A stretch of DNA of 64,000 nt, taken from the IMG/VR virus record IMGVR_UViG_3300024341_000001; one strand, written 5' to 3'. Each line of letters begins with the position of its first letter. Position 1 is the stretch's first letter. The position numbers were made by a program, and so were the translations under genes. Below the pieces are notes generated by a model that did no database searches, was not told the origin of the DNA, and saw nothing but the letters and a program-made list of their open reading frames with translations. The stretch is from a virus. Taxonomy: Duplodnaviria; Heunggongvirae; Uroviricota; Caudoviricetes. This document shows, piece by piece, positions 37,148 through 38,281 of the stretch.

Positions 37148-37152
37148 ATGTG

Positions 37153-37227
37153 TGGGAGATCACGGGATCGAACCGTGGACCTTCGGTTTGTAGGACCGAC
37201 GCTCTAAACCAGCTGAGCTAATCTCCC
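37153..37227 (-). tRNA. tRNA-Val(TAC)
   Basis: Loop CCTACAA. Confidence 0.93.
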
Positions 37228-37482: not shown

Positions 37483-38149
37483 TTACCATTTACCCTTTAT
37501 CCACGCTTTCAGATCGCGTCGCTCGTTTGTTCTATGGTCAATCCATAAATTATGTTTTACCATATAAGTACGAATTTTTTCTGCTCGATGTCCCGACCCC
37601 ATCTGCAATCGTTTATTTTGGGCCGCTTGTTTTTGATGATTATATTTAGCGATACGTTGTAACTTAGAATATAATATTTCAAAAGCAAGTTGTTTGTTTT
37701 GGTACTGGGATCTTTCGGAACCGCAACGAACAGTTAACCCTGATTTATGTTTTAATACAACAACTGTTTCAACTTTATTACGATTCTGTCCTCCAGGACC
37801 GCTTCCTTTAGTGGTTGTAACTTCAACGTCATTAAAATTTATACTGACCTCGGGAAGTTCTATAAGATCCAACACTGCAACTGTTACAACAGAGGTATGT
37901 GTTCGTCCTCGGTTTTCTGTAGGAGGAACTCTGTGCCATTGGTGCGCACCACCCTCGTTTTCAAATAATTCCTTTGCTCTTTGTCCGATAACCTGAACTG
38001 AAGCAAACCCATCACTAACATATATTGGAATTGCCTCAAAGTCCGTGTTTATACGCGACTTTTAAATAAATACTTAATTGATCCTCGACGAGGAGTTTTG
38101 CATCCGCTCCACCCTCGCCAGCTTGTAATTCCAATAAAATGTTACTCAT
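37483..38149 (-). CDS. Class I release-factor homolog (PrfH-like size, PxT and GGQ) needing a +1 frameshift at CTT-TGA
   Basis: Frame 1: MSNILLELQAGEGGADAK...HGL then TGA (38036-38038). The +1 frame continues EAIP...EGGAHQWHRVPPTENRGRTHTS...GPGGQNRNK...RSQYQNK; about 221 aa joined. Confidence 0.85.
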
Positions 38150-38206
38150 GATGTTTTTCCTTTCTACCCAAGGTTTGAATTTCTTCAGGGACACAAGGGG
38201 AATGTA

Positions 38207-38281
38207 GGTGACCGATGGGATTCGAACCCATAACGTACAGGGCCACAACCTGTCGGACTAAGCCAATTGTCCTACGGCCAC
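38207..38281 (-). tRNA. tRNA-His(GTG)
   Basis: Loop TTGTGGC, C73; G-1 not encoded. Confidence 0.92.

Follow-up and report, generated by a model that had tools for sequence, protein, structure and literature searches.

A conserved +1 frameshift site in a phage RF1-like release factor gene and its possible cross-regulation by host RF2

A release factor gene lies split between two reading frames within the tRNA array of a lake-water phage, and the locus raises the question of whether this frame break is an error of assembly, a mark of decay or a site of recoding and, in the last case, which signal the recoding would follow. The analysed stretch of DNA, called here the window, has 64,000 nucleotides and is part of a 215,016-bp IMG/VR virus record that is rated complete. 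The gene is on the minus strand with a joined extent of 38149-37483, and the coordinates and description given in the initial annotation proved to be exact. That annotation had taken the two halves as a single factor of RF1 type that lacks domain 1, has the PPT and GGQ motifs and is completed by a +1 shift at CTT TGA G. The joined product matches the PCRF and RF-1 domains and both motifs are present, in accordance with this proposal. The features of the locus are as follows.

38207-38281, minus strand: tRNA-His gene, directly upstream and ending 58 nt before the ORF1 ATG; the release factor gene is thus within the tRNA array.
38158-38163, minus strand: SD-like AAAGGA, 8 nt 5' of the ORF1 ATG, read from the sequence; motifs of the SD type are enriched at the starts of this phage.
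38039-38149, minus strand: ORF1, read in frame 0, with ATG as the first and CTT as the last of its 37 codons; it covers the beginning of RF domain 2 with the EGG-x-D tip of helix alpha-5 (G13, D16).
38042-38046, minus strand: ACGGA directly 5' of CTT, made up of the last two bases of a His/Asn codon and the E-site codon GGA; it sits at the position where relatives have their SD.
38035-38041, minus strand: shift site CTT TGA G, with CTT at 38041-38039 and TGA at 38038-38036; reading resumes at GAG, 38037-38035.
37483-38037, minus strand: ORF2, +1 frame, 184 codons plus TAA (37485-37483); remaining domain 2, domain 3 (GGQ) and domain 4.
37918-37926, minus strand: PPT tripeptide, residues 75-77, aligned with the PxT of RF1 in an RF1-like context (HQWHRVPPTENRGRTHTS).
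37786-37794, minus strand: GGQ catalytic motif, residues 119-121, placed by profile and structure-chain alignments.
37152-37227, minus strand: tRNA-Val gene, directly downstream of the release factor gene.

The 3' end of ORF1 reads ...TAT AAA CAC GGA CTT TGA G. When CTT-T is taken as a single step, a joined product of 221 aa (P0001) is obtained and the peptide across the junction of ORF1 and ORF2 is ...HGL-EAIPIY... (HGLEAIPIYVSDGFASVQVIGQR). Four other ways of linking or expressing the halves were considered and rejected. Readthrough of the TGA would lead nowhere, as frame 0 ends six codons further on at TAG TGA; an intron is impossible with an offset of 1 nt; transcriptional slippage is not expected on a T run that is just three long; and internal initiation at GTG 37875 would proceed without an SD and give a product that misses the decoding motif. 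The scan for promoters and terminators and the search for the GGTATAAGA box of this phage showed nothing convincing adjoining the release factor gene or between it and tRNA-Val. The gene is probably co-transcribed with the flanking tRNA genes.

The simplest explanation of the break is that a formerly continuous gene was broken by an indel of one base and that its full-length protein is not made. A lone genome with a frame break of 1 nt does resemble an indel, and gene callers give just the C-terminal 129-135 aa, but this reading is now extremely improbable. The assembly indel that had been feared at the outset did not appear in the Logan contigs of four lake-water runs (one from 2018, one from 2019 and two from 2025), in which the break is identical and the site carries no inserted or missing base. 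One of the four differs solely by a synonymous change of GCG to GCA at 38054 in ORF1. Two of the runs may be the source of the assembly, which leaves only two as independent. Stronger evidence against an error than these contigs is given by the relatives, as in 64 loci of 36-79% identity the frame breaks at one and the same codon, a CTT that is always followed by a stop. Each half is moreover under purifying selection in its own frame. The comparison of the genes of the window lineage gave pN values of 0.18-0.35 against pS values of 0.56-0.80, the latter saturated, in both halves, and ORF1 compared with its homologue L099 showed a pN of 0.21 and a pS of 0.56. Within the reach of sequence data, the indel or pseudogene reading is refuted.

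The distribution of the shift was followed in homologous loci from scans of IMG/VR and metagenome contigs, of which 117 could be scored. The +1 shift is needed at the same alignment position in 64 of the 117, and in every one of the 64 a CTT precedes the stop, so the occurrence of the site is far beyond chance. The protein alignment with unshifted homologues is gapless over the junction. Fifty of these loci have TGA as the stop and 14 have TAG. The distinct shifted genes number 56; an SD-like run was found in 43 and no SD in 13, and in 37 the prfB geometry is reproduced, with exactly 3 nt separating GGAGG from the CTT that follows. The base after TGA in the shifted genes is C in 25, G in 16, A in 4 and T in none (0/45); T after the stop is the strongest termination context. 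The +1 recoding site in the phage RF1-like gene is confirmed as real and conserved, and the anatomy of the split gene, its conservation, the selection on both halves and the intact sequence at the site are direct observations. The conservation of the CTT-stop site in homologues, on which the earlier claim depended, is evident in these loci and in the five members of the window lineage, all of which have CTT TGA. The device is not peculiar to this phage but a trait of a large phage family, most of whose distinct shifted genes have the GGAGG-N3-CTT arrangement.

The identity of the stop codon varies in the family. The claim of a UGA at the shift site holds for the window and for the majority of the shifted loci, but not for those 14 in which it is UAG, and the tree indicates that TGA and TAG have switched at least six times among close relatives, also between genes that agree in the tripeptide (L048/L051 and L110/L112, for instance). 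The CTT TAG loci are L051/L117/L118, L105/L108, L110/L126, L047, L069, L089, L098, L127 and L132/L133, some of them with GGAGG-N3 and some without an SD. Among phage records, those of the huge phages LR7565xx and LR7452xx come nearest; the GC-rich LR745208 (locus L001) has the same layout with CGG AGG GGT CTT TGA C. The tripeptide varies as well. Some relatives have SPT, a hybrid of SPF and PxT, and in some shifted members, namely L001, L012 and L061, the tripeptide loop is lost or shortened (e.g. HRVQRTSNGRIHSS); judged from their sequences, such factors may no longer read stops in the manner of RF1.

The protein search returned 1,743 relatives at E<=1e-20, named by JGI as 'peptide chain release factor 1'. 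Most of them are called at about 79% of the query length, and hence the ORF1 part has been missed by annotation. The gene tables of two relatives, P0015 and P0063, show a short ORF called just upstream, of 37 aa in P0015 and 46 aa in P0063. The nucleotide search of the phage collection gave no match, and the scan of genome contigs returned essentially canonical bacterial RF1 genes of at most 43% identity, with no clue to the host.

The clade of the window gene comprises in addition L099, L260, L261 and L100; it is AT-rich and belongs to the shifted genes without an SD. L099 is about 72% and L100 56% identical to the window gene, and the five members together span 56-79%. In L099, L260, L261 and L100 as well, a 37-codon ORF1 ends in NAC GGA CTT TGA and is followed by the +1 frame. 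The window has no SD-like run before CTT, where AAACACGGA stands, and the base after the UGA is G and not C. The phage itself uses SD sequences, as AGGAG/AAGGA is enriched 10-20 fold before its gene starts. The earlier statement that there is no clear internal SD was thus right for this gene, but the absence marks its lineage only, as most shifted relatives have one. What is conserved instead is AC-GGA directly before CTT, in 5/5 members. Of the Gly codons of the genome 32% are GGA, of the Asn/His codons about 26% are NAC, and of the Leu codons 14% are CTT; as the codons of ACGGA are minority choices and the synonymous sites are saturated, the element is conserved at the nucleotide level. The folding of the region revealed no downstream structure common to the window gene, L099 and L100. 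Since the SD stimulator of prfB is missing here, basal shifting in the window lineage is probably low.

The neighbourhood of the gene differs among relatives. At L260 (711-1238) and at the P0015 locus the gene has as neighbours a PTS_2-RNA 2'-phosphotransferase, a SpoU methylase and an HNH protein instead of the tRNA genes seen here; from such variable RNA-repair and RNA-modification neighbours it follows that the release factor gene travels in a variable island of translation and RNA-repair functions. P0063, which is 58% identical and lies on a 198-kb contig, has beside it a protein bearing a domain of the Por_Secre_tail type (T9SS sorting), a neighbour that hints at a Bacteroidota host for the phage of P0063; the search of the genome of the present phage for Por_Secre_tail, as a similar hint, was negative.

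In the midpoint-rooted tree the window clade is sister to a large AT-rich clade of single-frame genes that have one or two in-frame TGA codons. This clade (L002, L003, L004, L009, L019-L046 and others) contains 47 genes with the same PPT motif. Their in-frame TGA codons, 75 altogether, are all found at six alignment columns corresponding to residues 37-52, which coincide with the place of the shift site in the other clades or follow closely on it. The conserved Trp is always TGG (87 codons) and never TGA, and most of the in-frame TGA codons are followed by CTN. Judged from these sequences, the in-frame TGAs look like a position-specific UGA gate that replaces the frameshift site, and not like general recoding of Trp. 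The tests for stop reassignment in the 3-kb flanks of homologous loci, based on open-frame coverage and same-frame bridges, were confounded by GC content.

These comparisons bear on the possibility that the SD-less CUU-UGA-G does nothing more than set a low and near-constant yield of a factor that would be harmful in excess, any response to RF2 being incidental. A low efficiency is what would be expected without an SD, the tRNA array is probably heavily transcribed so that a translational brake would be useful, and the identity of the stop is interchangeable within the family. A weak RBS or a rare start codon would be a cheaper means to the same end, yet the AAAGGA-N8-ATG start of the gene is good. 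Further, T is avoided after the TGA, and the stop gate has been kept in one short region in two forms, the +1 shift and the in-frame TGA confined to residues 37-52, which points to the stop codon as the regulated step. Fixed attenuation is therefore considered unlikely.

The nature of the product is central to the question of what the shift would sense. Against Pfam, P0001 matched the second half only of PCRF (profile positions 100-194 of 194) and the whole of the RF-1 domain. Among NCBIfam models prfA scored highest with 175.7 bits, followed by prfB (120), prfH (75.4) and ArfB (37.1), all of them far under the equivalog cut-offs; for RF1 the scores were 170 and 175.7 bits against cut-offs of 423 and 400 (TIGR00019 and NF001859, respectively), the match covering profile positions 104-329 only. 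With the chains of solved structures, 138 bits were obtained for T. maritima RF1, 121 bits for T. thermophilus RF1 and 83 bits for RF2. Residues 4-214 of P0001 align end to end with residues 107-325 of T. thermophilus RF1 (domains 2-4; E 5e-34). In this alignment the shift site is equivalent to F140/E141 of the T. thermophilus protein and hence in domain 2, and the earlier remark that it is placed elsewhere than in prfB, whose site is at codon 26 in domain 1, is upheld.

The decoding residues of RF1 are retained: G116 corresponds to G13, E119 to D16, PxT (PVT in T. thermophilus) to PPT, and H193 and T194 to H84 and T85, and the decoding context RVPPTE..GR.HTS is RF1-like throughout. The position aligned with Q181 of RF1 is occupied by His in P0001, as it is in four of the five lineage members. 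Q181 reads the third stop base in RF1, and because it is replaced here the codon range of the factor is uncertain. Domain 1 is absent, as the PCRF match starts at profile position 100, and it cannot lie upstream because the tRNA-His gene ends so close to the ATG. In RF1 this domain contacts the L11 stalk and RF3. Judged from its sequence, the factor probably terminates at UAA and UAG only and does not read the UGA of its own shift site. The sister clade supports this view, since genes with the same PPT motif carry one or two TGA codons in their own reading frame, which suggests that the family probably does not read UGA.

A truncated release factor could alternatively serve in the rescue or repair of stalled or damaged ribosomes, like PrfH or ArfB, and not in general termination; the frameshift would still be real. 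P0001 resembles PrfH in being without domain 1 and it has a weak match to the PrfH profile. This match is, however, below the PrfH cut-off of 166.65 bits, and the motifs by which RF1 reads stops are intact, unlike those of PrfH and ArfB. RtcB (PF01139) gave no match in the 215-kb genome. Such a role is quite improbable.

A further alternative is autoregulation as in prfB, in which the phage factor, having a broadened or RF2-like range, would read the UGA of its own shift site and at high levels end its own synthesis. The cassette of most relatives copies that of prfB (GGAGG-N3-CTT-TGA-C), some relatives have the hybrid SPT tripeptide, the interchange of TGA and TAG under the same tripeptide would be easy for a factor that reads both, and the window lineage has His in place of Q181. 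The decoding region is nevertheless RF1-like throughout, with Thr as the third residue of PPT, and the prfA profiles outscore those of prfB. The in-frame TGAs of the PPT sister clade would also be self-defeating if the factor read UGA. Direct feedback of this kind is thus held to be improbable.

The genome in which the gene resides uses the standard code. ORFs of at least 80 aa (table 11) cover 88% of it, with no excess of same-frame bridges over TAG or TGA, and the stops of 246 crude gene calls are TAA in 147 (60%), TGA in 80 (33%) and TAG in 19. The reassigned stop that defines the code-change module of recoded phages was not found in this genome, and the release factor gene is the sole gene with an RF domain in it. 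The genome has 38 tRNA genes, one with the anticodon CUA and none with the anticodon UCA. The 37 tRNA genes of the window are all on the minus strand over 37 kb (2472-39979), interspersed with small ORFs, and all five Leu isoacceptors, including GAG, are present. Two of these tRNAs are of interest here.

16379-16461, minus strand: tRNA-Leu(GAG), the isoacceptor reading CUU and able to re-pair on UUU.
10243-10317, minus strand: tRNA with anticodon CUA, of the amber-suppressor type; labelled Pyl by ARAGORN from the anticodon only, with at most 59% identity to the other tRNAs of the window.

The preferred reading, to which a probability of roughly 0.6 is assigned, is that a phage RF1-type factor lacking domain 1 is made only by a +1 shift at CUU-UGA-G and is cross-regulated by host RF2. 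In prfB the +1 slip at CUU-UGA competes with termination by RF2, and the yield is inverse to the RF2 activity at that codon. To this we add, as inferences, a stop specificity for the factor, a dependence on RF2 and a feedback logic, which would operate as follows. When the P site holds peptidyl-tRNA-Leu on CUU and UGA occupies the A site, termination and slippage would compete. Termination would yield a dead-end peptide of 37 aa. In the other branch the tRNA would re-pair on UUU, the UGA would be skipped by one base and reading would resume at GAG to give the full-length protein, a product which, bearing GGQ, is predicted to be catalytically competent. UGA is read by host RF2 alone, the phage encoding no other release factor and no UGA suppressor, and hence more of the phage factor should be made when little RF2 is free. 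UAA, the commonest stop of this phage, is common to the RF1-type factors and RF2, so that more phage factor would relieve RF2 of work at UAA. The RF2 thus freed would be available for the one third of phage genes that end in TGA, and a negative feedback loop would be closed without any reading of UGA by the factor itself. The initial interpretation is partly supported, and host translation shutdown, which it proposed as the signal, is a putative one.

Several points count against cross-regulation. The shift may be very inefficient without an SD; the His in place of Q181 makes the codon range of the factor uncertain; the swaps between TGA and TAG fit the sensing of RF2 no better than they fit a dual-stop factor or a gate indifferent to the stop; and the co-resident tRNA(CUA) would be opposed by an RF1-type factor. 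The switching of the stop, the His at the position of Q181 and the tRNA(CUA) are left unexplained by the model.

A wider proposal covering the whole family is offered tentatively, its chances being somewhat under even. In it a stop-codon checkpoint within residues 37-52, formed either by a CUU-UGA/UAG shift or by one or two in-frame UGA codons, would tie the output of the phage factor to host termination at that stop. The window lineage would have swapped the SD for ACGGA and would represent the first SD-independent natural variant of the CUU-stop site and the first case of one release factor class sensing the other.

The CUU-UGA +1 shift is the textbook case of a gene that gauges its own product, and the same device is now seen in the other release factor class, at another position of the protein, in viruses, and with either UGA or UAG as the stop. 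For an RF1-specific factor, the switch would report on the other release factor of the host and let the phage gauge directly, while infection proceeds, how much termination capacity is available. In the SD-less lineage, nature provides a test of which elements besides an SD are able to drive the shift. For annotation the consequence is practical, as the family has more than 1,700 database proteins and gene callers give most of its members as a C-terminal piece of 130-200 aa; it is thus systematically mis-annotated.

Among known systems, the bacterial RF1 (PrfA; TIGR00019 / NF001859; 1rq0, 4v63) shares with the phage factor domains 2-4, a PxT-type tripeptide, GGQ and the GG-x-acidic tip of alpha-5. 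The phage factor departs from it in lacking domain 1, in scoring 175.7 bits against a cut-off of 400, in having His for Q181 and in being made by frameshifting. PrfH (RF-H; TIGR03072) is a domain-1-less release factor paired with RtcB2 (PMC6514570). The two are alike in their size of about 200-220 aa and in retaining domains 2-4 and GGQ without domain 1; they differ in the profile score (75.4 against 166.65 bits), the RtcB partner, which is not in this genome, the RF1 stop motifs, which are kept here, and the location in a phage tRNA array.

The release factors of huge and recoded phages (PMC7162821; 10.1101/2021.08.26.457843) are similar in that a phage-encoded RF1 adjoins tRNA genes. The phage RF1 and RF2 genes are reported by Al-Shayeb et al. 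2020 (PMC7162821) and in the preprint of Borges et al. (10.1101/2021.08.26.457843), in which a frameshift or a missing domain 1 is unmentioned. In the open-access papers and preprints searched, no description of frameshifting in phage release factor genes was found. Every CUU-stop case in RECODE is prfB (PRFect preprint; recoding data in PMC10274946), for which the autoregulatory +1 frameshift of RF2 has been described (PMC10274946). In recoded phages RF1 is tied to TGA recoding, unlike in the present phage, where the code is standard and TGA is a common stop.

The closest parallel is prfB itself, whose SD-N3-CUU UGA C frameshift was reportedly described by Craigen and Caskey and surveyed by Baranov et al. 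2002. The phage gene resembles it in the slippery codon CUU followed by UGA, the +1 direction, the class-I release factor encoded, the short upstream ORF (37 codons here and 25 in E. coli) and, in most relatives, GGAGG at the 3-nt spacing. It differs in that the gene appears RF1-like, with the site placed in domain 2 and not in domain 1 and with PPT in place of SPF, and in that the window lineage is without an SD and shows G in place of C behind the stop; relatives also use UAG. The window gene thus lacks four defining features of the prfB cassette, namely an SD, a C next to the stop, a location in domain 1 and SPF, and it retains the core of that cassette, CUU with an in-frame UGA and the downstream protein in the +1 frame.
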